Below are positions 7,228 to 33,720 of a DNA stretch of 64,000 nucleotides, piece after piece. The stretch is from Acholeplasmataceae bacterium. GTDB lineage: Bacteria > Bacillota_I > Bacilli_A > ML615J-28 > CAG-313. A model generated the notes under the pieces. That model saw nothing but the letters and a program-made list of their open reading frames with translations, searched no databases and was not told the DNA's origin. The translations under genes were made by a program, and so were the position numbers. Location: contig DUOG01000051.1 in the NCBI GenBank assembly GCA_012838945.1, positions 3,845-67,844 of the forward strand. The letters are read 5' to 3'. Position 1 is the stretch's first letter. Each line of letters starts with the position of its first letter.

Positions 7228-8082
7228 ATGAAAAGAATATTATCATTTTTGTTGGTGTTATTGGTCCTACTGATATATGGATGCAAGCCCAAAGAACACA
7301 CATATCCTGATTTTAGTGCCATTGGCCGCATCAATGTGGTCCAAGACGTCAATGAAAGTACCAAAGCTACGCTAAGGTTATTCACAACCAAAAAATATAA
7401 TCAAATAAAGGTCAATAAAATTGACAGCCCCGAGCCATTCCAGTGGAGCATCAGTGAACCAAAAAAAGTTGTTGTTAAAAAAGGTAATCAAAAACATCAT
7501 AGCTATTATTATACGATTACCATTACTTTTGAAGGTCCCGCCCACTTTTCTAAAGTAGAGTTATCGCTTGATGATGTAGTTAAAACCTATAATATCGGAA
7601 GATTTGAATGTAAAGAAATGCTTGGATATGAAACGGATGATGACGTCAAAGTTTATTTTGATATTCCTTTTGAATGTTATCAACAACCATTTGTCACTAA
7701 TGCCCTTATTTATGTGAGGGTTCAAAATGAAAGTGAGATACCGATCGAACTAGTATCATTAAAAAGTTTAGAAACCAACTCTGAATATGAGATTGATGTG
7801 ATGAAAAGTAATCTACAGCGCCACGAGTTAGATAAGGGTGAGGATACGGAGGCAACATATTTTAATCTGGGGGTATTTACAGATGACTTGATGATGCTTG
7901 AAACCCTCTTTGAGTTACAGTATATCAAAGGTGGCAAACTATGCAAAAAAGTGTTGAAGTGTTCCCTAGGACTGATGCCAGAAGTAATTGATAGTGAGAT
8001 TTTGCCGATACATGTGGAACTGGACTATTTAAATAATGGGAAAGTGTGTACCCTTGAAGAAGAGTTATCGAATTCTCATTAG
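7228..8082 (+). CDS. Lipoprotein, function unknown
   Basis: Signal peptide with lipobox LIYGC; the mature N-terminus GCKPKEHTYPDFSAIGRINVV. Confidence 0.55.
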   Translation: MKRILSFLLVLLVLLIYGCKPKEHTYPDFSAIGRINVVQDVNESTKATLRLFTTKKYNQIKVNKIDSPEPFQWSISEPKKVVVKKGNQKHHSYYYTITITFEGPAHFSKVELSLDDVVKTYNIGRFECKEMLGYETDDDVKVYFDIPFECYQQPFVTNALIYVRVQNESEIPIELVSLKSLETNSEYEIDVMKSNLQRHELDKGEDTEATYFNLGVFTDDLMMLETLFELQYIKGGKLCKKVLKCSLGLMPEVIDSEILPIHVELDYLNNGKVCTLEEELSNSH

Positions 8083-8854
8083 TTTATGCGTGCTACTTTG
8101 TATATTTGCTATCGCTGGTTGTAGTAAGCCAAAAGCTACCCTTCCTAGTGACTTTATTGGGGTAACTAAAGTTGAAGTGATTGATTATCTTCAAAATAAA
8201 AGTCATCAATTTAAATTTTTAGTCTTTACCTCTACTGACAATGAGTTAATTGATGGGTTTAAAAATAAATATATTGATAAGTTAGTAATTAATCGTTTGC
8301 CTCATATTTACTTAATTGATAATAATGAACAATACCTTAGTTCGATGTATGAAGTAACCGTTTCGGTAAAACCTATGGTTTGTCAGTTTCAAACGATAAA
8401 GTTATCTTTTAAAAATGGAGTTAAGGAGATTCCCTTTGGTTATTATGAAAACATTGATTTACCTCATTCAGAAAATCAAATTGATGTTAACTTATATTAT
8501 GATTTAAAATCAAACAATAATATCTATGACATGCAACTAATTATTCATAACTACCGGATGAGTGATGTTTACTTAAACCAAATAAACTTTGTTGATAAGG
8601 AAAATTCAGATCGGTTTGTTATGGCTCCCCTTACCGATAATATTATCATCTCTGATAATATCAAAATTATTTCCAACATTAAGTTAGAAGTCCCAAATAA
8701 CACCTTTTATAATAAAGGTTTAATCAACTTAAAGTTTGTTACTGATCATTTAGAATTTGAACAACCAGCGGTATATTTGGTTGATAATCTTCCAGATTAT
8801 TATCAATTAAAAGAATCGGGAATCGAATTAAATAGATTAATTATTCCAAGATAA
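8054..8854 (+). CDS. Lipoprotein, a paralog of the preceding gene
   Basis: Lipobox IAGCS. The mature N-terminus GCSKPKATLPSDFIGVTKVEV parallels the upstream gene. A TTG at 8054 gives a canonical signal peptide (KKSYRILISL...). Confidence 0.5.
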   Translation: MKKSYRILISLCVLLCIFAIAGCSKPKATLPSDFIGVTKVEVIDYLQNKSHQFKFLVFTSTDNELIDGFKNKYIDKLVINRLPHIYLIDNNEQYLSSMYEVTVSVKPMVCQFQTIKLSFKNGVKEIPFGYYENIDLPHSENQIDVNLYYDLKSNNNIYDMQLIIHNYRMSDVYLNQINFVDKENSDRFVMAPLTDNIIISDNIKIISNIKLEVPNNTFYNKGLINLKFVTDHLEFEQPAVYLVDNLPDYYQLKESGIELNRLIIPR

Positions 8855-8887: not shown

Positions 8888-10174
8888 TTATATAAGATAT
8901 TCTTTATATTTACTTACAAGTCGTTTAGGAAGGCGAGCCATCACTTTGATAGCATCAGGTTCATAATCGGTGGATATGACTTCAGTATTTTCTTTTAAGT
9001 AGGAATAGATTTCCCCTTTGGCATAAGGTAGTTTTAAGGTGTAAATGGCATAACTACCAAACAACTCATTTTCAATCCAATTAAGTAGTTCTGGATAACC
9101 TTCTTTAGTCTTGGCCGAAATGCGAAGGGCATTTTCATATTGAGATGGAATATAAAAGTAATCATCGATTAAATCAATTTTGTTAAAGACATATAAAGTC
9201 TTAACATTCTTGACCCCAATTTCAGTTAACACTTGATTAGTAGTTTGGATTTGTAAGTCTAAATAGGGACTGCTTGCATCTACCACATGGAGGATTAAAC
9301 TAGCTTCTTTAATTTCTTCTAAGGTTGATTTGAAAGATTCTACTAAATGGTGCGGTAGTTTACTAACGAAACCAACGGTATCGGTTAGTAAGAACTCATT
9401 ATTTGACGGTAGTTTTATCTTTCTAGTGGCAGTCTCTAACGTAGCAAATAACATATCTTCCGTATACACTTCTTTAATATCGTTTTCGGTAGTGAATTCT
9501 AAGATGGAATTTAATGTTGAAGATTTACCACTGTTAGTGTAACCTACTAAAGCAACTACTGGTACGCTTTGATCGTGGCGTTTCTTTCGGCTAGTTTCCC
9601 TAGCCTTTACTAGTTCTTTAAGTTCTTTCTTGGCTTTATCAATTTGACTTAAAATTCTACGACGGTCTAGTTCCAGTTTAGTTTCCCCTGCTCCACGACG
9701 GGCACCAGCACCCCCACCACCGCCTCCCCCAAGGCGTGATAGATAACGGCGACTTCCCACTAAGCGAGGCATCATATACTTCATAGCCGCAATCTCTACC
9801 TGGAGTTGGGCTTCTTTAGTTTTGGCCCGCCGATCAAAGATATCCAAGATAACCATAGTTCGGTCAATGATCCTAGTATCAAGAACAGATTCAATATTTT
9901 TTATTTGGGATGGTGTCATTTCATGATTAAAAATTACCACTTCAGCATCAGTAGCATCAACCATCATTTTTATTTCTTCAAGTTTTCCGCGATTTACGAA
10001 AAAGGCAGGATTAATGGTTTGAAGGTTTTGGGTAACCACTCCGACCACTTCCACTTGGCACGCCACACATAATGCTTTTAGTTCTTCTAATTCGTATAAG
10101 AATTCTTGGGTATTTCCCGTGTTGACGGAAACTAGTACGGCCTTTTCTAATGTTTCAAAATTCATAAGCGTCAC
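8888..10174 (-). CDS. hflX: GTPase HflX
   Basis: N-terminal HflX domain with a Gly-rich loop (GGGGGGAGARRGAGE); G1 GYTNSGKSS and G3 DTVGF. Confidence 0.85.
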   Translation of the reverse strand: MTLMNFETLEKAVLVSVNTGNTQEFLYELEELKALCVACQVEVVGVVTQNLQTINPAFFVNRGKLEEIKMMVDATDAEVVIFNHEMTPSQIKNIESVLDTRIIDRTMVILDIFDRRAKTKEAQLQVEIAAMKYMMPRLVGSRRYLSRLGGGGGGGAGARRGAGETKLELDRRRILSQIDKAKKELKELVKARETSRKKRHDQSVPVVALVGYTNSGKSSTLNSILEFTTENDIKEVYTEDMLFATLETATRKIKLPSNNEFLLTDTVGFVSKLPHHLVESFKSTLEEIKEASLILHVVDASSPYLDLQIQTTNQVLTEIGVKNVKTLYVFNKIDLIDDYFYIPSQYENALRISAKTKEGYPELLNWIENELFGSYAIYTLKLPYAKGEIYSYLKENTEVISTDYEPDAIKVMARLPKRLVSKYKEYLI

Positions 10175-10324
10175 TCATTTCTTGTAATATTTACCTTTAT
10201 TATTATACCACATAACTTTCAAATCCTATCAAATTCTGATTTAAAATATCAATAATTATTGGTTTGTTTTTGAAAACTTTTGATTTATCTTTCATATACT
10301 TGTAGTGGTGAAGGAGGTTAGGGG

Positions 10325-12301
10325 ATGCTCGATAATTTTAGTAAACAAGTTATTAGAATCATTGAAGAATCTAAAGTAATTGCGAGAAGCAAAGATAGTC
10401 AATTAGTGGGAACCGAACATTTGTTGCTTTCAATGATGACCATTGAGGATTCAATCTGTCATTTTTTATTATCAGAACAAAATATTAGCATAAGTGATAT
10501 TGAAGCAATCTTAGAAAAGTATGTTATCTTACGGAAAAGCGATTCAGAAGATATTATTTTCACCCGAAAATATCAAGAAATAATTCTTGATGCTGGCGAG
10601 TTAGCCTCTCGCCTCAATAGTAGTTTAGTTTTTGATGAACATCTTTTTTATTGTTTGTTAAAAGCTGATGCTGCGGTTGCTAAAGAGATCTTGCTGGAAT
10701 TAAAGATGAATATAAATGATTTGTTGGAAGATATAGAGGACATCTTTCAATTTAATCCCCCTGAAGAAGATTATGTCTATTCATTTTTAACTAACATTAG
10801 TGAACTTGTCAAAAAGCCCAATGCCAATAAATATATATCAAGGGGAAACCACTTAGAAAAGATTATTAATATTCTATCCAAAAAGCAAAAAAACAACCCA
10901 ATGTTAATTGGGAGTGCTGGAGTGGGAAAAAGTGCGATCGTAGAAGGATTGGCTCAAGAACTGATTAAACGGAACTACAAAGAGCCAATTTATCGCCTCG
11001 AGCTTGGAGCAATGATGGCCGGGACGAAATACCGCGGTGAACTAGAAGAAAAACTAATCAAAGCAATGAATTTTATTAAAGAAAAAAAAGCTATCCTTTT
11101 TATTGATGAAATTCACAACATCGTAGGCGCTGGTTCTAATGAGGGATCACTGGATATTGCTAATATATTAAAGCCTTACCTTGCTCGTTATGACATCAAG
11201 TGTATAGGTGCGACCACTTTAGAAGAGTATTATCGCTATATTGAAAAAGATAAGGCCTTGATGCGTCGTTTTCAAAATATCTTTATCGATGAACCAACCG
11301 AATCAGAAACCCTAATGATTTTAGAAGGGATAAAGGATTCCTATGAAGAATACCACGAGGTATTCTATCCTCAAGAGATCTTAAAAGGAATTGTTAAAAA
11401 GAGTGGGCGCTTTTTGATTAATCGTAAGTTTCCCGATAAAGCTATCGATATCTTAGATGAATTAGGAGCCCGAGCCCATGCTAAAAGCAAAACAGTAATT
11501 ACCTCCGAGATGCTGGGAGAAATCATTAAAGATATGGGAGGAATCAATCAACTCTCTAGTGAGGAACTAAGAAAGTTAGTCTTAAACTATCCCGGGTTAA
11601 AGAGTTATTATTTACGCTTTTTAAAAGGGGAAAGTGATGCGACCAATATTGTAGTGATTGAAGTAGAGGCAGGATTTAATCCTGAGCCGTTGTATCAAGA
11701 CTTGGATAAAGTCTTTAAACTACGAAAAGAAATGATCTTAGAGATAAATCTCGAAGAATACCTAGAGCACAATGCGATCAATAATCTGATTGGCTCACCC
11801 GCTGGTTATGTGGGGTATGAAACGGGAGGGATCTTATCAGAGCATCTGATAAAATATCCAATGTCAGTTGTTTACTTTAAGGGAATAAAACACGCTAATT
11901 TTGCGATTAGAAACTTTTTGAAACGAATGTTAAAGCAAAAGACAATTATGGATAACAAAGGAAGGACCATTTTATTATCCAATACTATCTTCATTTTAGA
12001 AAAAGATCAAAAACAACGAGTGATTAAAGGTTTCTTAAGCTCAGAGGTTAACGAATCAATTAGTGAAACTGAAGCAGATATTAGAATAGCAAAACCGGGA
12101 AAAAAGATGGGTCATGATAGACAAATGTTAAAATATATTGAGTTAGGATTAAAAGAAGGTTATAACATTATCTTTGATATTGAAGAGATTAAGAACCCCA
12201 AACAACTAGAACAAACCTTTTATCAAATCTTACTTGAGATACCAGGAACTTATCATATTTATGAAAAAAATAATCAATATCATTATCGCCATGACGGTTA
12301 A
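10325..12301 (+). CDS. Clp/Hsp100-family ATPase-like protein: two Clp_N repeats and an intact first AAA+ module, but the second module lacks a P-loop
   Basis: Clp_N repeats at the N-terminus. D1 has Walker A GSAGVGKSAIVEGL, Walker B ILFIDEIHN and sensor ARYDIKCIGATT. The D2 region keeps IGSPAGYVGYETGG and KGRTILLSNTIFI, but NIVVIEVEAG replaces the Walker A GxxGxGKT. Confidence 0.7.
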   Translation: MLDNFSKQVIRIIEESKVIARSKDSQLVGTEHLLLSMMTIEDSICHFLLSEQNISISDIEAILEKYVILRKSDSEDIIFTRKYQEIILDAGELASRLNSSLVFDEHLFYCLLKADAAVAKEILLELKMNINDLLEDIEDIFQFNPPEEDYVYSFLTNISELVKKPNANKYISRGNHLEKIINILSKKQKNNPMLIGSAGVGKSAIVEGLAQELIKRNYKEPIYRLELGAMMAGTKYRGELEEKLIKAMNFIKEKKAILFIDEIHNIVGAGSNEGSLDIANILKPYLARYDIKCIGATTLEEYYRYIEKDKALMRRFQNIFIDEPTESETLMILEGIKDSYEEYHEVFYPQEILKGIVKKSGRFLINRKFPDKAIDILDELGARAHAKSKTVITSEMLGEIIKDMGGINQLSSEELRKLVLNYPGLKSYYLRFLKGESDATNIVVIEVEAGFNPEPLYQDLDKVFKLRKEMILEINLEEYLEHNAINNLIGSPAGYVGYETGGILSEHLIKYPMSVVYFKGIKHANFAIRNFLKRMLKQKTIMDNKGRTILLSNTIFILEKDQKQRVIKGFLSSEVNESISETEADIRIAKPGKKMGHDRQMLKYIELGLKEGYNIIFDIEEIKNPKQLEQTFYQILLEIPGTYHIYEKNNQYHYRHDG

Positions 12302-12397
12302 AGTTGTGGCTTTTTATTATTAAGATTAGTGATAACTCAAATAATAAAATAAGGCATTTTTCCTTTAAAATAGCCTGACTTTATAATTTGGTATTTT

Positions 12398-12432
12398 TCA
12401 TTAACAAAATTGTCAAATCGTGGTATAATAAA
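12398..12432 (+). promoter_or_regulatory. Sigma-A-type promoter TTAACA-17 nt-TGgTATAAT
   Basis: It lies inside the 5' end of the maximal ORF, which implies the real start codon is at 12439 or 12451. Confidence 0.45.
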
Positions 12433-12450
12433 AGAGTAATGGTGATGATT

Positions 12451-15400
12451 ATGGGAAAAAACAAAGAACGAAAGTATTTATTAAAGTCAACCAATAAACA
12501 TTTATTAGATATTTTTGAACAAAATTACTATGTGGAATTAGGTTCAATCGATCTAGAAGTAATGAATGAGTTCTTGAGTGGTACGAGTATTCCTTTCAAT
12601 GAAATTGCTGATAAGATGATTTTGGTAGAAGGAACTGGTCGAATCACTAGTGACTTTAATTATGAACAAGAATATCAATTAAATTATCTTTTAGATTTTG
12701 TTAGATGGAATTCTTCCACCAAACTCTTTTTAACCTGTGGTATTATTAAATACTATAGTACGCTTAAACAAGAACTCTATGCACCTCTTTTGTTAATTCC
12801 CATTAAATTATATAAAAATCAAGATGGCAATTGGGAAGTTGTCAAGTGTGGCGAAATCTTTGAAAATGAATTATTAATGAAACGGTTACGTGAACTAACC
12901 ATTGAACCGCTTCCTAAAGCAGAAGATATTAGAAGACCATTTGACATTGACCACTACTCACAACGAGTAGCTAAAGCTTCCGGTTGTACTTTTGAAATCG
13001 GGAATTTTTTAACCTTTGCGAGGACGGAATATCCAGACCTTAACTTTATTCATGAAGAACTACTTGATACTAGTTCCTTTTTGGAATACTCTATTGCATA
13101 CATCTATGGACAGGCTTTATCAAAAACAAGATCCCTTTTACCATCAAACATCTATCAAAAGTATGTAATGGTAAAGGCTTCACAAAATGAAAGTTTTGCT
13201 TGTAGTGGGCGCTTAAATTCCGGTAAAACCAGTACCATTATCAATATTATTGGTGAAAGACTATTAAAAAATAAACAAGTATTATATGTCAATAGTGATC
13301 AAGTTGCGTTAGGAGAACTAGAATACCGCCTTCATGAGCTTGGTCTTGGAAAATATACCTTTAATTTGGTGAACCCATTAAAAACACCTAAAATTAGCCC
13401 AGTACGTAAAGACTATCATTTACGCGGGATGAAGAAAACTCTCGCCAAACTTTTAAGCAATCTACTATCTTTTGACCACCTGTTAGATCATAAATACTAT
13501 GGATATCGTTACCGTGAAATTGTGGAAAATCAATTATCTTTATATATCAATGGGTATGTTCATAAACCATTACCAATTGTGGATAAGTTGGAAAAGTTTG
13601 AAGTTGAAGGCATTTATGAAAAACTAAAAGCAGTTGAACGTGCCCTTTCGGTAATTGGTCCTTATGAAAAGTGTGGTTGGAGTACTTTAGAGCACTACTA
13701 TACTAGTAGTGATATTAAAGAAGTTGTTGAAGCAACCACAACTTTTGAAGCAATTCAAAATGAACTTTATACGGTATTTAATAAATTTAATGAACAATAT
13801 CATTTTAAACCAACCACAACAATTAAAGATGCTCATCGATTGATATATATACTAAAAGGTTTTAGTGATAATATTCCACCGTATAGTTGGCGAAAAATTA
13901 AAGATTTTAAACGTGCCACAAGAGAAATCAATTATCTAAAGGAACTTCAAGCAGAATATCAAAAACACCAAACTAAAATCCAAAACACCTATAATGGTGA
14001 TATTGAAAGTGTGGATGTTGAAGGTATCTTTAAGACTTTACTAGGGCCGTATTATGAAGTAACCGATAATATTTATCTTGATCGCATTTTATATAATTTA
14101 AAAAGTTTAAAAGAATTAACTAAAAGAGTAAATATTAATAAAAAGGTTATTAATGAATCATTAACTGCCTTAAAGGCTACCTTTAAGATTAAAGTTGTTG
14201 AAGACTATATGTATGATTTGTTGGCTGAAATAAATGAGTATTTAGATCAGCATGTTTGTCAGTTGCATTGGCTTACCCAATCATATGATAAGAATCCAAA
14301 TATCTTAGATGATTACAATTCCGATTATTTGAATTATTTAGAATACAATGATTTAGCTGTTCGGATTAAAAGTTACCTTAAAAAAGGTGCACCAGATGAT
14401 TATCAAACGCTTTATAGTTTGCTTACAACTCAAGATGATCAAAAGGTTCTTCAAAAGATTATCAACTTTAAACTATTAAAAGAAGATAACCTTTATCTTT
14501 TTAACTTGATTGCTTATCTTAAACGTTATTTAGAATTAGTTGAAATCTTAACTAATAAAATGAAAAAACACAAGTTTAAGACTTTTGATGACCTAGCAAA
14601 TAACTATCATCAATATAAAGCTTATATTGACTTACTTGATAAATCAACTAAAGAAAAGACGTTTATTAAGAAAATATTAGAAGACTATTTAACCAAACTT
14701 GAGAAGAAGAGGAATAGTGCTAAAGAAAGACTTTCCGCTTTTAGTAGAACTTACCTTGATAATTTAGATATTATCAAACAATTAAAGTATTATAATATTA
14801 ATATCAATACTCCTCAAGCTACGAAAAAGCTAACTATGCTCTATCATTTTGTTCAATATTTTAATCACATTTATAGTTTGAACCAAAAGTATCGTCCATT
14901 CTTTAAGAAGAATAACTTAGTAATTTTTGAGGATTATCAAGAGTTATTGAGGGATGTGAAAAATCATCATCGCCTTCAAAAAGCGATTGCTGTAAAGGAT
15001 AGTGATTACCAATATCTCTTTGGTGAATATTATCGTGGTTTTAAAACTGATATTATTACCCTGGAACGAATGATCGCTTATTTCCAACTTTTCTTACAAA
15101 TAATTTATGATCCAAAAGAGTTGGATGAAATGTTAATTCGTGACACTTTATTAAAGATTATCAGTAAACGCAAAACATTGGAAAAACTATATGAGAATTG
15201 GTATAGTTGTTATCGAAGATTCAACAAACTATTCCGTGATAGTAAATCCTATTACTTTGAAAATACCTTGTTAGAGAACATGGAGATAATTTCAGGGTAT
15301 GTTAATAAGTTAAACCTTCTTCCTGATGTCTTTACCGTCATTGAAAACATTGTGTTTATTAGGAAATATGGATTAGATAAACTTGCATTAGGAATTGAGA

Positions 15401-16680
15401 ATGGTACCTTCTTTGATAATTTGGGTGATCGCTTCCTAGCAACGGTTTATGAACATTATCAAAAGGCCATTGAAGATAAGTATCCAATCCTAAAGGATTT
15501 TGATAAGGTATTAACTGATGCTAAGTCTTATTCCATTTTGGAAAAAGAATGGTTTAATCAAAACATTGAATATTTTGCTGATAAAAAAAGCAATCCACGT
15601 GATCGTATTAAACATAAATTAAAGACAATTAGCACCTATAGTTGTGACCGGATCATAGATATTATTGGTCGAGACTATCAGGTATATTTAGCAGATGTCG
15701 ATATTTTCAACAGTAATATCGATCTTAAGCGATTTGATACCATTATCATTGATGATGCTCATTTGGAAAACTCTAATAAATATTATCGTTTAGATGAAAA
15801 TCTAAATCAGGTGATAATTTTCGGTGATAAAACCTTTACTAGTTCGGTATCGAATAACTTAATGCAAAGAATTATCCCTTCGGCTATTACGCCGTTAAAA
15901 TATCGTTATCAAAGCCTTAACAATTATTTTGATAACCAACTAGGAACAAATAATATTTATATCCCTAGATTTGATCAAAATGCTAAAATTAAGCGACTAG
16001 CAAACATCAGTGATTTAACGAAAGAAATAATTGAAGCAAGTACTTCAAAGACCATCAATATTGTTTTTGCGAGTAACAAGACAAAATTTAAATTTTACCG
16101 TGAGTTATTAAATGGTATTGATGACTATGAAAAAACTAAAAAGTTATTAAAGAATATCAATTTGATAAATGCACTTACTCATGATGCATTAAACGCTGAT
16201 GATGTTTATTTGTTGTTTGATGATTTCAAGACAATGGAAGCTGATGTTTTAGATAAAGTTCTAACTAATCATAATCAAGCATCCCAAAACTTCTATATGG
16301 TCTATTTTGAAGACATCATTGAAGAAAGAAATCAATACTTAGAAGCTCAGATGTTAAAATTACTGAAACGTAAAATCGCCTTCCTCCCTAGCTACAATCC
16401 AGTTATCAGTTATTTGGTGAATGAACTTCAACAACAAGGAGTGGAAGTTGAGTGGGGCGTTGGGGCTATTGATCTAATTGTTAAAGGTGCTAAACCATAT
16501 GGTTTTATCATAATTGGTTTGGATGAAGAGGATAAGTCTTTTATTGATATCTATCAATACTACTATCAAGAGTTTTTAAAACATGGGTGGAAGATCGAGT
16601 TTATATATGCTCCAGCACTAGCAAAAGATCCACAGGCAATAATAACAAAAGTAATAAAGACGGTGATGAAAAATGGATAA
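12451..16680 (+). CDS. Giant SF1 (Upf1-like) helicase-related protein with an ~850-aa helical insertion and a PD-(D/E)xK-like C-terminal domain
   Basis: N-terminal APLLLIPIKL region, recalled as DUF4011-like. Walker A GRLNSGKTSTII plus SDQVALGEL; Walker B IIIDDAH; motif III IIFGDKT; motif IV-like LKYRYQSL. The C-terminal AIDLIV...GLDEEDK resembles a restriction-endonuclease fold. The maximal ORF begins at 12388. Confidence 0.55.
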   Translation: MGKNKERKYLLKSTNKHLLDIFEQNYYVELGSIDLEVMNEFLSGTSIPFNEIADKMILVEGTGRITSDFNYEQEYQLNYLLDFVRWNSSTKLFLTCGIIKYYSTLKQELYAPLLLIPIKLYKNQDGNWEVVKCGEIFENELLMKRLRELTIEPLPKAEDIRRPFDIDHYSQRVAKASGCTFEIGNFLTFARTEYPDLNFIHEELLDTSSFLEYSIAYIYGQALSKTRSLLPSNIYQKYVMVKASQNESFACSGRLNSGKTSTIINIIGERLLKNKQVLYVNSDQVALGELEYRLHELGLGKYTFNLVNPLKTPKISPVRKDYHLRGMKKTLAKLLSNLLSFDHLLDHKYYGYRYREIVENQLSLYINGYVHKPLPIVDKLEKFEVEGIYEKLKAVERALSVIGPYEKCGWSTLEHYYTSSDIKEVVEATTTFEAIQNELYTVFNKFNEQYHFKPTTTIKDAHRLIYILKGFSDNIPPYSWRKIKDFKRATREINYLKELQAEYQKHQTKIQNTYNGDIESVDVEGIFKTLLGPYYEVTDNIYLDRILYNLKSLKELTKRVNINKKVINESLTALKATFKIKVVEDYMYDLLAEINEYLDQHVCQLHWLTQSYDKNPNILDDYNSDYLNYLEYNDLAVRIKSYLKKGAPDDYQTLYSLLTTQDDQKVLQKIINFKLLKEDNLYLFNLIAYLKRYLELVEILTNKMKKHKFKTFDDLANNYHQYKAYIDLLDKSTKEKTFIKKILEDYLTKLEKKRNSAKERLSAFSRTYLDNLDIIKQLKYYNININTPQATKKLTMLYHFVQYFNHIYSLNQKYRPFFKKNNLVIFEDYQELLRDVKNHHRLQKAIAVKDSDYQYLFGEYYRGFKTDIITLERMIAYFQLFLQIIYDPKELDEMLIRDTLLKIISKRKTLEKLYENWYSCYRRFNKLFRDSKSYYFENTLLENMEIISGYVNKLNLLPDVFTVIENIVFIRKYGLDKLALGIENGTFFDNLGDRFLATVYEHYQKAIEDKYPILKDFDKVLTDAKSYSILEKEWFNQNIEYFADKKSNPRDRIKHKLKTISTYSCDRIIDIIGRDYQVYLADVDIFNSNIDLKRFDTIIIDDAHLENSNKYYRLDENLNQVIIFGDKTFTSSVSNNLMQRIIPSAITPLKYRYQSLNNYFDNQLGTNNIYIPRFDQNAKIKRLANISDLTKEIIEASTSKTINIVFASNKTKFKFYRELLNGIDDYEKTKKLLKNINLINALTHDALNADDVYLLFDDFKTMEADVLDKVLTNHNQASQNFYMVYFEDIIEERNQYLEAQMLKLLKRKIAFLPSYNPVISYLVNELQQQGVEVEWGVGAIDLIVKGAKPYGFIIIGLDEEDKSFIDIYQYYYQEFLKHGWKIEFIYAPALAKDPQAIITKVIKTVMKNG

Positions 16681-17206
16681 ACGAAAAAGAAGCCCTAAAC
16701 GCGACTTAAGAGAAATAGTAAGAGATTTAAAAGAAAATGTTGATTCAATCGCAAAACTAAAAGTGAAATTAAAAAACATTGTGGAAAACGGTGGGGATTT
16801 AAATATTAAACTTTACAGTGGTCGCACCTTGATGCATTATGCTGTGAGGTATAATAGAAAGGGACTAATTAAATTATTTTATCGATTAGGAGTGAATGCG
16901 GAGATCTGTGATGATAATTACAATACCCCTTTGCATTATGCAATCCTAAAAGATAATTATCAAGCGGTAAAAGAATTAATCAAACTTAATGTTGATATTA
17001 ATTTACCAGCGGAGCTTGAACAAACTCCTTTGCATATGGCAGTTTTAAAAGGAAATAAAGATTTAGTAAAACTACTAGTTGAAAATGGAGCTGACATTAG
17101 TCTAGTTGATGAAAAAAACTTAACCGCCTTAGACTATGCCTATGATGAAAATGATAAAGATATAATCAATTACTTAAATAGTAAAATGAAATTAATAAAT
17201 GGATAA
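16673..17206 (+). CDS. Ankyrin-repeat protein with about four ANK repeats
   Basis: Repeats TPLHYAI, TPLHMAV and TALDYA, spaced about 33 aa apart, with the usual ANK hydrophobic pattern. The ATG overlaps the stop of the giant gene (ATGGATAA). Confidence 0.75.
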   Translation: MDKRKRSPKRDLREIVRDLKENVDSIAKLKVKLKNIVENGGDLNIKLYSGRTLMHYAVRYNRKGLIKLFYRLGVNAEICDDNYNTPLHYAILKDNYQAVKELIKLNVDINLPAELEQTPLHMAVLKGNKDLVKLLVENGADISLVDEKNLTALDYAYDENDKDIINYLNSKMKLING

Positions 17207-17221
17207 ATAGGATGTGGAATT

Positions 17222-18028
17222 ATGGATATTTTTAAAGATATTTGGTCATATTTTAGTAAGTATACTGGCGGATTTGAAGCCTATGGAATCATTAGACTAG
17301 TTATTGATTTATTACTTATTTCTTTTCTTACCTTTTCAGCTATCATCTTCTTAGCCAGAAAAACTAAACAATCTGCGATGAGAAAGATTCTCATTACCTT
17401 TATTGTGGTGATTTTGATAGTATTTTTGATGGATCTTCGAATCATGCAAGAATTACTTAGGGAATCAATTTCCATACTGATCATCTTGTTCATTGTGGTT
17501 TATGCTCAAGAGATTAAAACCTTCCTAGGTTTTTATGTTCGTTCGAAAAACCATAAGGGATTGCTTAACAGTGAAGAAAAGAAAGATCGTTTAATTAACA
17601 CCTTAATTTCAACCGTAAGTTATTTATCGAGACGCTCCATTGGTGCTATTATTACGATCGAAAAAGATAATTCTTTAAATGCATATATTGAGAAAGCTAT
17701 CTATTTAGATGCGGAAGTTTCCTTTGAACTCTTTTCTACCATCTTTACTCCGGGCACCCCACTTCATGATGGTGCGGTAATTGTTCGGGGAAACCGAGCA
17801 ATGTGTGCCGGCGCTTTCTTTCCATCGAGTGATAAGTATGATATTCCTAAATCCCTTGGTTCCCGTCACCGGGCTGCTCTGGGGATTAGTGAAGTCAGCG
17901 ATGCTTTCACAATTGTCGTATCTGAACAAACTGGTAATATCTCTACTACGATTGATGGAGTAATAAATATTAATATTTCATTGGATGACTTAAGAATGTC
18001 ACTAAAACAAAACATTCTTTTAAGATAA
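17222..18028 (+). CDS. cdaA: Diadenylate cyclase CdaA (c-di-AMP synthase)
   Basis: Three N-terminal TM helices and a DAC domain with TPGTPLHDGAVIV, RHRAALG and VVSEQTG. Confidence 0.85.
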   Translation: MDIFKDIWSYFSKYTGGFEAYGIIRLVIDLLLISFLTFSAIIFLARKTKQSAMRKILITFIVVILIVFLMDLRIMQELLRESISILIILFIVVYAQEIKTFLGFYVRSKNHKGLLNSEEKKDRLINTLISTVSYLSRRSIGAIITIEKDNSLNAYIEKAIYLDAEVSFELFSTIFTPGTPLHDGAVIVRGNRAMCAGAFFPSSDKYDIPKSLGSRHRAALGISEVSDAFTIVVSEQTGNISTTIDGVININISLDDLRMSLKQNILLR

Positions 18029-18037
18029 GGGGGTCCT

Positions 18038-19333
18038 ATGACGCAAATCTTAGATTTTTTGAGTGAAAATAAATATCAGATTGAATATCTTTATTATGCG
18101 GGGTTAGTGACCCTTATTGGCTTGATCATCTTTAAAGCAAGCCTTTTTAAGAAAATATTTAGTTATGATGTGATTTTTCTCTTAATCGTGGTGAGTTACT
18201 TTGGTTTAAATTTTTTGTGGAAAACCGATTACAATCCAACCATTTATAGTGTTTTAGCTATTGTCCTTGTCATCATTCAATTAATAAAGACAACTCACTA
18301 CTATCAAGAAGAAGATAAAATGAAGGTCAGTGCCTTAAATCATATCAAAAACGCGGATTATGATTATTTTGTTACAGTTGATGACAAAGATAAAATGATT
18401 GATTTTAGTAATAGTATTGCTCAAAAGTTTGGCATGGGAGAAAGTGATCTCCGAAAAAGTAAGTTTTGGGATCTCTTTGTTAGTCGCTTTGGCATCGTTG
18501 GGATTAATGAAGAACCAGTTGATGAAGAACGACTAGCCATCTTAAAAAGAGAATATGCCAAAAAGGTTAAGTTTAATATTAGTTATCAATTTCGGGTTCA
18601 AGTAAGAAATATTGATAATGAAATTGAATACTATCAATTCTTAGTAAAGCCAATCTATAATGGTGAACGTTACTTAGGAAAGAATATTTTCATTAATCGT
18701 AATCGCTGGCAAATCATTAATGAGTTGAATACTAGCTTGGCTAATATGATTGATCAATATGAAAAAGCCAAACAACAAAGTCATATCTGGTTAAGTATGG
18801 TTCCCCAAGTATTGCTTTACTATGACTATCACTCTCAGACTTATATCATAACCGAAACCTTTAAAAGGGTTTTAAATACTCAAAAGAGTGAACTTACTGA
18901 AACCGAGTTTTTGGATTTAATCCATCCGGAGGATTTAGAAAAATATAAATCAGATTTAATGAATATCAATAGTCAAGAAGTCACCAGTATCATCTTTAGA
19001 TTAAAGATTAATGGTAAGTACCGTAAAATTAGTGAAGAGGCAATGCTGATGGAACCACAAAGTGGTTTAGTATCAGTTGTTAAGACCTTGCCGGTAAAAG
19101 AGGAAAATGCTGATAACGTTGAGTATATTAAAAGCTTAACTACTCCAGCTAGTCATAGTATTAATACCCAAGCAATTAAAACAGCTAGTACGACCATGGC
19201 TGCCCCAAAAGAAGATATTAAAGAAATTGAAACTAGTGATGACTTAAAAAAATTGGCTGAAAATATGCAGAATAAAGATGTTGACCGTTTGGAATCACTC
19301 CTTAATTCAGCCATCAAGAAGCGTGATTCATAA
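18038..19333 (+). CDS. Membrane-anchored protein with two PAS-like domains, at the position where CdaR (YbbR) usually sits
   Basis: Three TM helices, then PAS-like segments (DYFVTVDDKDKMIDFSNSIAQKFGM...; LIHPEDLEKYKSDL...). I recognised no YbbR repeats. Confidence 0.45.
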   Translation: MTQILDFLSENKYQIEYLYYAGLVTLIGLIIFKASLFKKIFSYDVIFLLIVVSYFGLNFLWKTDYNPTIYSVLAIVLVIIQLIKTTHYYQEEDKMKVSALNHIKNADYDYFVTVDDKDKMIDFSNSIAQKFGMGESDLRKSKFWDLFVSRFGIVGINEEPVDEERLAILKREYAKKVKFNISYQFRVQVRNIDNEIEYYQFLVKPIYNGERYLGKNIFINRNRWQIINELNTSLANMIDQYEKAKQQSHIWLSMVPQVLLYYDYHSQTYIITETFKRVLNTQKSELTETEFLDLIHPEDLEKYKSDLMNINSQEVTSIIFRLKINGKYRKISEEAMLMEPQSGLVSVVKTLPVKEENADNVEYIKSLTTPASHSINTQAIKTASTTMAAPKEDIKEIETSDDLKKLAENMQNKDVDRLESLLNSAIKKRDS

Positions 19334-20527: not shown

Positions 20528-21205
20528 ATGAAGAAAAGGTTTAAAAAGTTCTTCATTCTCGCATTAATTTTTTTAATTCCCTTATTTTTAATCAGTTTTT
20601 CTGATCGTTACTTTGGGGAACGAGCGGGGGTATATATAAAAGAAAGAGCCCAGATGTATAGTATGCAAATCATTAATGATGCTGTTTTAGAAGTGGTGGG
20701 GCCTAGTATATCAATGGATGACATCTTGATAATGGAAAAGGACACTACTGGCAAAATTATTAGTGTCTTAGTCAATACCCAACAAGTAAATCAAATCTTA
20801 GGGAAGGTTGGAAAAAGTGTAGAAGGTGGAGTTCAGGCGATTGAGGAAGGTAAAATCTCTAGTTTGAGCATCCCCCTCGGGGTTTTAATTAGTAGTACAA
20901 TTTTGGCCGATCGCGGTCCTGAAGTAAAGGTAAAGGTCCGACCAATTGGGTCCTATAAGGTTGATGTGATTTCTGAGGTTAGTGGTTATGGTATAAACAA
21001 TAGTTTAGTATTGGTCTATATCTTAGTAAAAATTGAACTGGAAGCATTGATTCCTTTGAGGATTGTCCCGGTAGTGACCGAGTCAAAAGTTGTCTTAATC
21101 TCACAAATAATTAAAGGGGAGATACCCAAATATTATTATGCTGCGGGGACATATTTGCCCAATCCTCCTCCTGAGTCTGATTTTGGCGTTATTCCTAACA
21201 GTTAA
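20528..21205 (+). CDS. Sporulation protein YunB-like
   Basis: N-terminal TM helix; IPLGVLISSTILADRGPEVKVKVRPIGS matches my recollection of the YunB family core. Confidence 0.45.
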   Translation: MKKRFKKFFILALIFLIPLFLISFSDRYFGERAGVYIKERAQMYSMQIINDAVLEVVGPSISMDDILIMEKDTTGKIISVLVNTQQVNQILGKVGKSVEGGVQAIEEGKISSLSIPLGVLISSTILADRGPEVKVKVRPIGSYKVDVISEVSGYGINNSLVLVYILVKIELEALIPLRIVPVVTESKVVLISQIIKGEIPKYYYAAGTYLPNPPPESDFGVIPNS

Positions 21206-21373: not shown

Positions 21374-21607
21374 ATGACAACAGATATCGAAACCAAAATT
21401 AAGAACATTATTACGCGCATTCGTCCCTATATTCAAAGAGACGGTGGCGATATTGAATACGTCCGTTTTGAAGACGGAATTGTTTTTGTCAGACTGACTG
21501 GCGCTTGTGTTGGTTGTCAGTTTAGTGATGTAACCCTTTATCAAGGCTTAGAGTCCGTTTTGGTGGAAGAAGTTCCGGGCGTTATCGGTGTGGAGCTTGC
21601 TGATTAG
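21374..21607 (+). CDS. NifU-like Fe-S cluster protein (Nfu C-terminal domain)
   Basis: GGDIEYVRFEDGIVFVRLTGACVGCQ. Confidence 0.8.
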   Translation: MTTDIETKIKNIITRIRPYIQRDGGDIEYVRFEDGIVFVRLTGACVGCQFSDVTLYQGLESVLVEEVPGVIGVELAD

Positions 21608-21609
21608 GG

Positions 21610-22017
21610 ATGAACCATATTGTTCTTTCAACGCTAATTTCATTAATAATCGCGCAGGGAATAAAATTTTTAATTGGCACCATTAAAGCTGGTAAGGCCG
21701 ATTACCGGTTAATCTATTCTAATGGTTCAATGCCTTCTTCTCATAGTAGTATCCTATCTACCTTAATTGTAATGGTAGGTCATTTTGAAGGAATTGATTC
21801 AATCATCTGGGGCATCACTTTAGTTTTTAGCTTATTAATAATTGGGGATGCAATGGGCATTCGTACCCAAAGTGGAAAACAAGCAAAAGTGTTAAACCAA
21901 CTGGTTGGTGAGAAGAGATTACGTGAACAAGTGGGCCATAAACCAACCGAAGTAATTGGTGGGATAATCCTAGGCATTATTGTTGCATTACTTTATATTA
22001 CTTTAATTATTAAATAA
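21610..22017 (+). CDS. Divergent PAP2-family membrane protein, YuiD-like
   Basis: SNGSMPSSHSS motif, three TM helices, about 135 aa. Confidence 0.6.
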   Translation: MNHIVLSTLISLIIAQGIKFLIGTIKAGKADYRLIYSNGSMPSSHSSILSTLIVMVGHFEGIDSIIWGITLVFSLLIIGDAMGIRTQSGKQAKVLNQLVGEKRLREQVGHKPTEVIGGIILGIIVALLYITLIIK

Positions 22018-22049
22018 AAATTAATATATTATCGAAAGGAGGAGATAAT

Positions 22050-22388
22050 ATGATTAAACCAGGATCAATTGTATATGGTAGAATAACGAATATCTTAGGT
22101 TATGGCGCCTTTGTCGCAATTGATGGTTATGATGGTTTGATCCATATCTCCGAATTTTCAGATAATTTTGTCAGAAATATCGAAGATTATGTGAAAGTGG
22201 GAGATCGGGTTAAACTAAAGGTTTTAGAAGTCGATGAAGAACAAAAACAATTAAAATTGAGCTATCGACAAATTCATAAGACTAGAGGAGTTCGCTGTCG
22301 TATTCCTCAATACAAGATTGGTTTTAAACCCTTAAAAGAAAATTTAGATCAATGGATAGCATTGAGTAAGGTAGGTCAAAGTGAATAA
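22050..22388 (+). CDS. S1 RNA-binding domain protein (YugI/GSP13-like)
   Basis: GYGAFVAIDGYDGLIHISE S1 motif. Confidence 0.7.
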   Translation: MIKPGSIVYGRITNILGYGAFVAIDGYDGLIHISEFSDNFVRNIEDYVKVGDRVKLKVLEVDEEQKQLKLSYRQIHKTRGVRCRIPQYKIGFKPLKENLDQWIALSKVGQSE

Positions 22389-32079: not shown

Positions 32080-33720
32080 ATGATTGAAACTTCAAACTTT
32101 ATTAAGACAATTGTAAAAAATGATCTTGAGTCAGGAAAGGTAGAAAAAGTAATTACTCGTTTTCCACCTGAGCCCAATGCTTACCTCCATATTGGACATG
32201 CTAGGGCGATAATCAATAATTTTGAAATAGCTAAAGAGTTTAATGGTTATACCAACTTAAGATATGATGATACCAATCCAGCTCAAGAAGATGTGGAATT
32301 TGTCGAAGCAATTGAGCGAGATATTAGATGGCTAGGTTATGAACCAAAGAATATCTTTCATGGTTCTGACTATTTTGAAAAGACATATGAAAAGGCTGTA
32401 TTACTAATTAAAAAAGGATTGGCTTACGTTGATGATTTAAGTCAAGAAGAAATTAGTAAATACCGCGGAACTTTAACAGAACCGGGCAAGAACTCACCTT
32501 ACCGTGATCGTAGTGTTGAAGAAAATTTAAGGCTTTTTGAAGCAATGCGAAATGGTGAATTCAAAGAAGGGGAAAAAGTTCTTCGTGCTAAAATTGATAT
32601 GGCCAGCCCAAATATGAATATGCGCGATCCAGTCTTATATCGTATTATGTACATCAGTCACCACCAAACAAAAGACAAGTGGTGTATATATCCGATGTAT
32701 GACTTAGCTCATCCATTACAAGATGCCTTCGAAGGAATTACTCATTCTCTTTGTAGTTTGGAATATGAAGATCACCGCCCACTTTATGATTGGGTAGTCG
32801 AACATTGTGAGACTGAACATAAGCCACAACAAATCGAATTTGGTCGCTTAAGTATTACTAATACGATTATGAGTAAACGCTACTTAAGAAAATTAGTTAC
32901 TGAAAATCATGTTAAAGGTTATGATGATCCACGCATGCCAACTTTAGTTGGACTTAGACGTCGTGGCTTTACTCCTGAATCCATCAAAGCATTTATTTTA
33001 TCAACAGGTTTATCAAAAACTAATTCAGTGGTAGATTATGCGATGCTTGAGCATTTCTTAAGAGAAGACCTTAAACTAAAGGCAGAACGCCGTATGGCGG
33101 TACTTGATCCACTAAAAGTAGTAATTACAAATTATCCAGAAGGACAAATTGAATATTTAGACGCTGAAAACAATTCGGAAAATAGAGAATTGGGTACACG
33201 TAAAATTGCTTTCTCAAGAAATATTTATATCGAACGAGAAGACTTCTTACCAGAAAAACCAAATAAACATTGGAAACGTCTTTCTAAAGATATTGAAGTT
33301 CGTTTATACAATGCTTACTTTATTAAATGTACCGAAGTCTTTTATGATGAAAATGGAGAAATTACTCACATTCATGCTACTTATGATCCGGAAACTAAGA
33401 GTGGTAGTGGCTTCAATGCCAGAAAGCCTAATGGAACTATTCACTTTGTTGAATGTTCAACCGCAGTTCCGGCGACATTCAACTTATTTGAACCATTAAT
33501 TTTAGGTGATGACATTACTCCAGAAAACTTCATCGAAAACCTTAATCCAAACTCATGGAGTGTTCAAAAAGGTTTTGTGGAAGCAAGCTTAGCTAAGGTT
33601 AAACCAGAAGAAAGATTCCAATTTTTACGAAATGGTTATTATATTTGTGATAATGATTCAACTGAAAATAATTTAATTTTTAATCGGACTGTTGGTTTAA
33701 AGTCTTCCTTTAAGGTGTAG
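32080..33720 (+). CDS. glnS: Glutaminyl-tRNA synthetase
   Basis: [18 protein letters not shown] (HIGH) and VMSKR-like IMSKR. Both the length (546 aa) and the C-terminal beta-barrel anticodon-binding domains are those of GlnRS rather than GluRS. Confidence 0.8.

Follow-up and report, generated by a model that had tools for sequence, protein, structure and literature searches.

The D2 ring of two-ring Hsp100/Clp ATPases is the ring that touches the peptidase ClpP, and it is regarded as delivering the main power stroke in ClpA, ClpB, and ClpC; in ClpA of Escherichia coli it is the principal motor. In the type II AAA+ proteins NSF and Pex1/Pex6, one of the two rings is catalytically inactive: one does the work and the other has a structural or assembly role, and the D2 of NSF still binds ATP through an intact P-loop. 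This paper describes a gene at positions 10325 to 12301 of a 64,000-nucleotide stretch of contig DUOG01000051.1 of an Acholeplasmataceae bacterium (GCA_012838945.1; the whole stretch is referred to as the window), which encodes a Clp/Hsp100 protein of 658 amino acids with an intact first AAA+ module (D1) and a second module (D2) that has lost its nucleotide-binding motifs. Its rings may divide their tasks by a functional logic like that of NSF and Pex1/Pex6. The protein differs from these, which belong to another AAA+ clade and do not dock a peptidase, in that the D2 P-loop itself is deleted.

ClpC of Bacillus subtilis and Staphylococcus aureus, with ClpP as its partner, shares with the window protein two Clp_N repeats, a ClpC-like D1, and a tripeptide at the position of the ClpP-docking loop tip; moreover, the best structural matches of the window protein are ClpC-ClpP complexes, and in Haloplasma its gene occupies the same chromosomal neighbourhood as clpC. 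In contrast to ClpC, the window protein lacks the M-domain as well as the D2 Walker A and B, sensor-1, and sensor-2 motifs, its D2-small subdomain is absent or unrecognisable by sequence, it is approximately 150 residues shorter, and neither ctsR-mcsA-mcsB nor a CtsR box is found upstream. Like the window protein, E. coli ClpA has no M-domain and carries its docking loop (IGL) at the same distance past the sensor-1 strand, but its D2 is active and its N-domain partner is ClpS. Among the non-canonical relatives, ClpM of the Plasmodium apicoplast is a ClpC-family protein that has no ClpP motif and in which a degenerate D1 is retained under selection (bioRxiv 10.64898/2026.05.20.726455), and thereby the mirror image of the window family, with its degenerate D2 and retained docking motif. 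ClpI of Actinomycetota, a recently recognized ClpC/ClpB-like class defined by bioinformatics, has subtypes with or without an LGF loop (PMC10149685); it differs in that both ATPase modules and the M-domain are kept, and in being a paralog beside ClpC and ClpB rather than a ClpC ortholog. In the literature, of which coverage was incomplete, we found no report of a ClpC ortholog that combines a dead D2 with a retained docking loop.

The clade in which the protein occurs comprises genome-reduced, Mycoplasmatota-related Bacilli, i.e., Haloplasmataceae, Acholeplasmataceae, Anaeroplasmataceae, and related uncultured lineages from gut and digesters. With a little more than even confidence, we propose that the clpC ortholog of this clade is an unfoldase powered by D1 only, of which the nucleotide-free D2 ring serves as scaffold, pore, and docking platform, most probably for ClpP. 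The features of the gene and its product are as follows.

10310 to 10317, forward strand: strong Shine-Dalgarno sequence GAAGGAGG, ending 7 nt upstream of the ATG (seen in the sequence itself)
10325 to 12301, forward strand: coding sequence of the ClpC-derived, D2-degenerate Hsp100 (658 residues plus stop; open reading frame listing, Pfam and NCBIfam matches, best PDB match B. subtilis ClpC)
10325 to 10759, forward strand: N-terminal domain with two Clp_N repeats, residues 1-145 (Pfam PF02861 in two stretches, E 4.6e-10)
10787 to 11299, forward strand: D1 large AAA+ subdomain, intact (motif coordinates)
10910 to 10933, forward strand: D1 Walker A GSAGVGKS, residues 196-203 (motif scan)
11027 to 11041, forward strand: D1 pore loop KYRGE, residues 235-239 (motif scan)
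11099 to 11116, forward strand: D1 Walker B FIDEIH, residues 259-264 (motif scan)
11207 to 11218, forward strand: D1 sensor-1 GATT, residues 295-298 (motif scan)
11264 to 11275, forward strand: D1 Arg fingers RRFQ, residues 314-317 (motif scan)
11300 to 11554, forward strand: D1 small (lid) subdomain, lacking the coiled-coil M-domain (AAA_lid_9; alignment)
11645 to 12007, forward strand: degenerate D2 large subdomain, residues 441-561 (Rossmann-like core kept, nucleotide-binding motifs lost)
11645 to 11674, forward strand: former D2 Walker A, NIVVIEVEAG (residues 441-450) for (F)LGPTGVGKT (alignment)
11804 to 11818, forward strand: retained D2 pore loop GYVGY, residues 494-498 (in nearly all members, lost solely in L037 and L038)
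11867 to 11899, forward strand: former D2 Walker B, VVYFKGIKHAN for VVLLDEIEKAH (PDB alignment to ClpC; family alignment)
12026 to 12034, forward strand: tripeptide KGF, residues 568-570, homologue of the ClpP-docking IGF/IGL/LGF loop tip (alignment to E. coli ClpA IGL and canonical (I/L)GF)
12113 to 12295, forward strand: C-terminal small alpha/beta domain, residues 597-657, consisting of helix, strand, helix, and beta-hairpin (predicted local distance difference test score, pLDDT, 80-89; missing from short members)

An earlier, sequence-only reading of the window had recognized here a Clp/Hsp100 open reading frame with two Clp_N repeats and a complete D1, with which the open reading frame listing, the Pfam matches, and the motif coordinates all agree. 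Following the Clp_N repeats, Pfam assigned AAA to residues 193-319, AAA_lid_9 to residues 326-392, and a partial AAA_2 match to residues 456-559 (profile positions 19-122 of 166), and it gave no ClpB_D2-small match in the 658-residue protein. The top NCBIfam match was ClpA TIGR02639, and scores remained far under the equivalog cut-offs (363 versus 993 bits for ClpA and 360 versus 1232 for ClpB TIGR03346). Best PDB match by sequence was B. subtilis ClpC (308 bits to 3j3s), in which ClpC residues 23-409 align to residues 22-391 of the window protein and ClpC residues 566-659 to residues 468-561; the intervening ClpC region 410-565, containing the M-domain and the D2 P-loop region, corresponds to just 76 residues. 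Alignment to canonical two-ring relatives and to ClpA and ClpB of E. coli (both retrieved from the K-12 genome) revealed that the M-domain, the coiled coil that ClpC, ClpB, and ClpE insert in D1-small, is cleanly deleted relative to canonical ClpC-like proteins and ClpB, as it is in ClpA. Hence, from the features of class I Hsp100/Clp proteins, Clp_N, an intact D1, and the D2 fold are present, whereas the D2 nucleotide motifs are missing and the NCBIfam cut-offs are not reached. Judged by these motifs the protein is set apart from plain ClpC membership, since it does not possess two active AAA+ modules. ClpB is characterized by a long M-domain and the absence of a peptidase-docking loop, and here the M-domain is absent and a docking-type tripeptide is present.

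In alignments across the family, little or no variation is seen in the Walker A, Walker B, and sensor-1 motifs of D1, in its two Arg fingers, or in the KYRG(E/D)LE pore loop, and by these retained motifs D1 shows itself a fully competent motor. The Clp_N motifs GxEHLLL and DEH are likewise invariant across the family alignment, and the N-terminal domain is modelled by AlphaFold2 as helical repeats (pLDDT approximately 75-93).

In D2, NIVVIEVEAG fills the place of the strand plus P-loop of the canonical SFLFLGPTGVGKT and about 20 residues around the P-loop are deleted, so that the replacement of Walker A that had been read from the sequence is reproduced by alignment. The sensor-1 position aligns to EKD instead of the canonical TSN, and sensor-2 GAR is absent from D2 in the alignment to canonical relatives. 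With Walker B, both sensors, and the M-domain gone too, the classification of D2 as a pseudo-ATPase is firmer than when it was initially suggested. The retention of other D2 segments, also suggested at that time, holds for the pore loop GYVGY and for DNKGR (residues 543-547), but not for the presumed sensor element "SN", which lies in LSNT and aligns with the canonical F(K/R)NT rather than with sensor-1 TSN. The open reading frame contains a single G....GK[ST], namely the D1 Walker A, and a six-frame motif scan of positions 10200 to 12500 detected no further Walker A or B in any frame; a frameshift concealing an intact D2 Walker A, which the sequence-only reading had named as an observation that would refute it, is therefore excluded. 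The five alternative frames of this region contain 46-82 stops each.

Despite these losses, the D2 fold is kept. An AlphaFold2 model based on the family alignment (pLDDT 75) and a separate model of D2 plus the C-terminal half (pLDDT 73, predicted template modelling score 0.72) both retain the alpha/beta core of D2, with beta1 at residues 443-448 followed by a helix, beta2 at 471-475, the pore loop, beta3 at 514-519, and beta4 at 554-560. The C-terminal domain may be a remnant of D2-small without the GAR sensor-2; its comparison with canonical D2-small by hhalign gave a probability of 0.6%.

The loop that follows D2 strand beta4 (residues 562-597) is disordered in the AlphaFold2 model (pLDDT <50), and the tripeptide is its best-conserved element. 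Among 46 complete sequences of the Acholeplasma type the Gly of the tripeptide is invariant and the third residue is F, L, Y, or I throughout (IGF 14, TGF 6, VGL 5, IGL 5, IGY 4, AGF 3, VGF 3, LGF 3, KGF 2, LGI 2, VGI 1, and IGI 1), with KGF confined to the window protein and its 78%-identical relative. The branch containing Haloplasma and Anaeroplasma displays IGF, LGF, IGY, MGF, or VGF, and an apparent decay to "EGM/EGI" in Anaeroplasmataceae was rejected as an artefact of the regular expression used, as alignment gives xIGF. The tripeptide at this position is LGF, IGF, or VGF in canonical relatives and is missing from ClpB-like ones. Furthermore, six truncated members (L018, L028, L033, L034, L037, and L038) stop 0-4 residues past the tripeptide, two of which (L037 and L038) have lost the D2 pore loop besides. 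A short conserved motif in a disordered loop that is kept when all downstream sequence is lost bears the signature of a partner-docking element. The family carries a candidate ClpP-docking tripeptide with an invariant Gly at the homologous position, of which the window protein has a version with a non-canonical first residue. The sequence-only reading had reported that no IGF/VGF docking loop was present, which is contradicted by the KGF at the homologous position and by the IGF, VGF, LGF, IGL, VGL, and IGY of the relatives; its corollary that the protein is not an unfoldase for ClpP finds no support in the sequence, because the docking tripeptide is retained even in truncated members.

Homology searches returned more than 100 clusters of 620-670 residues at approximately 50% identity, and in a 13-sequence family alignment the D2 motifs are missing from all sequences. 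A scan of GTDB species representatives identified 40 family loci, labelled Acholeplasmataceae, Acholeplasmatales, Mollicutes, Anaeroplasma, "Bacilli bacterium", "Staphylococcus sp. CAG:324", and "Coprobacillus" metagenome-assembled genomes, every one of which encodes exactly one Walker A and one Walker B. Full-length matches that are more distant (L040 onward) contain two Walker A and two Walker B motifs each, and the C-terminally cut L062 shows one Walker B. The Haloplasma member led to a second branch of 47 sequences with the same one-Walker pattern, derived from Haloplasmataceae, Anaeroplasmataceae, and a 3.2-Mb "Mycoplasmatota bacterium" contig; PF10431 was detected in none of these 47. 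When a query of residues 392-658 was run exhaustively against 1.84 billion representatives, canonical D2s matched the core alone (query positions approximately 70-180), and about 30 full-length single-P-loop clusters matched the family-specific flanks. Four proteins of 3,300-7,800 residues (P0136, P0150, P0154, and P0178) also surfaced among the best matches to this query, and contain two tandem ClpB-D2-like modules with intact GPTGVGKT, DE, and GYVGY.

The ratio of nonsynonymous to synonymous substitution rates (dN/dS), estimated by the Nei-Gojobori method for unsaturated ortholog pairs, was 0.01-0.12 in what remains of D2, as compared with 0.02-0.06 in D1 and 0.17-0.34 in the C-terminal tail; the value for D2 indicates strong purifying selection on the dead domain. 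The identical protein is also present in independent assemblies. Recent decay is ruled out by the orthologs and these ratios, and the lineage-specific decay that the sequence-only reading had left to be checked in orthologs gives way to a degeneration under purifying selection that all orthologs found have in common; the D2 loss is an ancient trait.

No true intermediate between canonical ClpC and the D2-dead family was found in the homology searches. Candidate P0235 (736 residues, no M-domain, intact D2) was discarded as sister or intermediate, since it is encoded by a jumbo-phage-like contig with its own ClpP. This contig (L086; ENA ERZ1767517 NODE_1, 345 kb) carries the gene for this M-domain-less, two-ring, ClpC/ClpA-like ATPase at 10001-12211 and that for ClpP at 21549-22082, about 9 kb apart, next to many unannotated small open reading frames, PhoH, NrdD with an intein, ThyX, dCMP deaminase, and a CCA-adding enzyme. 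P0168 (784 residues; gene at 10001-12355 of L085, a 24.7-kb Logan DRR337547 contig) was likewise discarded as evolutionary intermediate, being a highly diverged singleton with proteobacterial ClpA as nearest relatives at 33-39% identity. Its D2 has a P-loop-like GPANSGKS, has lost Walker B (FKN) and sensor-2, and has kept IGF, and on these motifs it may at most be an independent, partial parallel.

The chromosomal context identifies the family as clpC orthologs, and the relevant neighbours in the window are listed below.

8888 to 10174, reverse strand: hflX, divergent, conserved upstream neighbour across the family (Pfam GTP-bdg_N, GTP-bdg_M, MMR_HSR1; synteny)
12288 to 12320, forward strand: terminator-like hairpin plus T-run, overlapping the stop codon of the clp-like gene (consensus scan; pattern match only)
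12388 to 16680, forward strand: giant protein of approximately 1,430 residues (Walker-A-like GRLNSGKTS, IIIDDAH; marginal DUF4011 Pfam match; PADLOC PDC-S37, 1.4e-26)
16673 to 17206, forward strand: ankyrin-repeat protein, 177 residues (start overlaps the stop of the giant gene; PADLOC candidate PDC-M72A, 3.8e-19)
17222 to 19333, forward strand: diadenylate cyclase (DAC) protein of 268 residues, then PAS_3 protein of 431 residues (between the ankyrin gene and ispD-ispF)

The order hflX (reverse strand), clp-like gene, giant gene, ankyrin, DAC, PAS, ispD, ispF, and yunB is shared by the window and some 28 of the 40 loci; the giant gene was not matched at L007, L012, and L013, and lies upstream on the opposite strand at L009, L010, and L014. 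The family member of the cultured Haloplasma contractile SSD-17B (WP_008825012.1, 683 residues) is encoded in a locus with the order hflX and nrdE (both on the reverse strand), clp-like gene, radA, and further on glpX, ispD, and ispF, alongside gltX, cysS, an RNase III-like gene, a SpoU methylase, and a sigma factor. We take the corresponding map of B. subtilis 168 to be clpC-radA-disA-yacL-ispD-ispF-gltX-cysE-cysS-mrnC-yacO-yacP-sigH, which makes the Haloplasma locus the clpC neighbourhood and the family, therefore, the positional ortholog of clpC. In Haloplasma, radA fills the slot that the giant gene holds elsewhere, and downstream of the clp-like gene the window keeps DAC, ispD, and ispF. 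The position of hflX, divergent and upstream, and of the giant gene downstream is as originally read and is confirmed by the open reading frame listing and Pfam, and a motif scan also agrees with the reported absence of a CtsR operator upstream. Neither this operator nor the CIRCE element occurs in the 150-bp upstream intergenic region, matches elsewhere in the window are at chance level, and in the window, the family loci, and Haloplasma, ctsR-mcsA-mcsB is not upstream of the clp-like gene, where hflX lies instead. By pattern scan, the terminator-like hairpin at the stop codon and a near-consensus promoter part the clp-like gene from the giant gene, and the clp-like gene is therefore probably monocistronic.

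The ClpC of this clade is thus without an M-domain, and its D2 has kept the fold but none of the four elements that handle nucleotide (P-loop, Walker B, sensor-1, and sensor-2). In the proposed mechanism, hexamers would assemble through ATP-bound D1, which would thread substrate as the sole motor, and the dead D2 ring would passively lengthen the channel and serve to dock a peptidase, most probably ClpP, to which the unfolded chain would be handed over. Given the missing M-domain and the missing CtsR/McsB context, the enzyme would probably be a constitutive housekeeping enzyme rather than a stress enzyme gated by MecA or McsB.

Several points weigh against this proposal. In ClpA, ClpB, and ClpC the main motor is considered to be D2, and both hexamerisation without nucleotide in D2 and useful unfolding power from D1 alone have to be assumed. 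The first residue of the tripeptide, normally hydrophobic, is Lys in this protein and in the relative nearest to it, and T or A in nine others, which could reflect relaxed or altered specificity. ClpP, ClpX, and Lon were not detected by tblastn in the 64-kb window or within 10 kb on either side of 43 family loci, where the sole matches were two weak ones on the AAA+ module of the L031 clp-like gene itself and one on the Lon_C-like domain of radA at L084; as clpP is seldom linked to clpC, the lack of ClpP near the family loci is weak evidence. Reviews give ClpP as absent from Mollicutes (PMC6600665; PMC8138137, where the statement on Mollicutes is credited to Yu & Houry 2007), and clpP and clpX were missing in Tenericutes in one survey (PMC7804408), the relevant genera being listed in none of these. 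A literature search on the Clp content of Acholeplasma, Haloplasma, and Tenericutes yielded general statements and no genus-level table. If the absence of ClpP holds for the families of Haloplasma and Acholeplasma, the docking loop has no known partner. Either the less-reduced lineages have ClpP, or the tripeptide loop docks another partner. The second option, in which the lineages truly lack ClpP and the xG(F/L/Y) loop on the nucleotide-free D2 docks a different peptidase or effector in a new, D1-powered Hsp100 pairing, is in our opinion doubtful.

The same reports, the lack of ClpP at all loci examined, and the non-hydrophobic first residue (K, T, or A in 11 of the 46 Acholeplasma-type sequences, including the window protein) would also fit a D1-driven chaperone or disaggregase-like remodeller that works independently of ClpP and uses the tripeptide for intramolecular or inter-subunit contact or for another partner. 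Such a role is conceivable, but we consider it on the whole unlikely, as ClpB and the ClpB-like proteins of L041, L050, L072, and L079 are without the tripeptide, which the family has kept in approximately 90 diverged sequences, even as the extreme C-terminus, and as the M-domain that couples ClpB-type disaggregases to Hsp70 is absent. The sequence-only reading preferred a regulatory or adaptor Hsp100 over an unfoldase, and a pseudo-enzyme that does not unfold substrates at all could account for the half of the ATPase machinery that is dead and for NCBIfam scores so far under the ClpA and ClpB cut-offs. The (near-)invariance of the catalytic and substrate-gripping motifs of D1 and the conservation of GYVGY in nearly all members are, however, expected of a threading motor and not of a static adaptor, which renders this option improbable.

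A functional module with the adjacent giant DUF4011/superfamily 1 helicase-like protein and the ankyrin protein, for instance for remodelling or degrading the giant protein or within a defence-like system, is suggested by the gene order that these share with the clp-like gene in about 28 of 40 loci and by the PADLOC candidates PDC-S37 and PDC-M72A. This appears a far-fetched interpretation, in view of the ancestral clpC neighbourhood with radA in this slot in Haloplasma, the loci in which the giant gene is unmatched or upstream on the opposite strand, the terminator-like hairpin and promoter between the two genes, and the location in a housekeeping region of the chromosome (hflX, ispD, ispF) rather than a mobile island; the PADLOC defence models gave weak generic AAA+ matches only with the Clp-like protein itself. 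That the gene is an artefact or a decaying pseudogene, due to frameshift, assembly error, or recent loss, is hardly credible: nothing beyond the missing motifs themselves speaks for it, and it is countered by the intact frame, the lack of Walker motifs in other frames, the identical protein in independent assemblies, the same defect in approximately 90 orthologs, and a dN/dS far below 1.

The window also allowed observations on other genes. The listed TTG start of the giant gene is probably too early, as the promoter at 12401-12429 lies inside it, and an ATG at approximately 12451 (MGKNKERKY) is likelier. The overlap of its stop with the start of the ankyrin gene suggests, by position, that the two are translationally coupled. 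The ankyrin gene is kept in the same synteny block across the clade; it is unusual for a core block of a bacterial chromosome to encode such repeats. The DAC and PAS_3 pair is placed where Bacillus has disA-yacL, and the C-terminal position of the DAC domain (131-246 of 268) fits a predicted CdaA-type rather than a DisA-type cyclase. At 32080-33720 (forward strand) a class I Glu/Gln-tRNA synthetase with tRNA-synt_1c_C and _C2 anticodon-binding domains is encoded. These domains are presumably typical of GlnRS and of the eukaryote/archaeal-type GluRS, and Anticodon_2, which the Haloplasma gltX carries, of the bacterial type; the gene may thus encode a GlnRS in a Bacilli-derived lineage. Two adjacent, overlapping open reading frames at 7228-8854 (forward strand) encode proteins of 284 and 272 residues with lipoprotein-like N-termini (LLIYGCKP and IAGCSKP). 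These have the appearance of lineage-specific lipoprotein paralogs, and for the first no match to Pfam was obtained. Finally, a homolog of the sporulation protein YunB (20528-21205, forward strand; Pfam 2.6e-21), in a genome with relatives labelled Acholeplasmataceae, fits the sporulation remnants reported in Mycoplasmatales-related orders (PMC10868615).

A whole clade has long kept a ClpC of which D2 is stripped of its nucleotide motifs, yet of which the fold, the pore loop, and the docking loop are preserved, and this has a bearing on annotation. The family represents a natural experiment on whether D1 alone can unfold and translocate substrates, what a passive second ring contributes, and, with some members ending at IGF, how minimal a D2 can be for docking. 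Moreover, it sharpens the question whether reduced Bacilli have ClpP, against the textbook generalisation for Mollicutes, or another partner for the loop, a question that the cultured Haloplasma contractile makes experimentally approachable.

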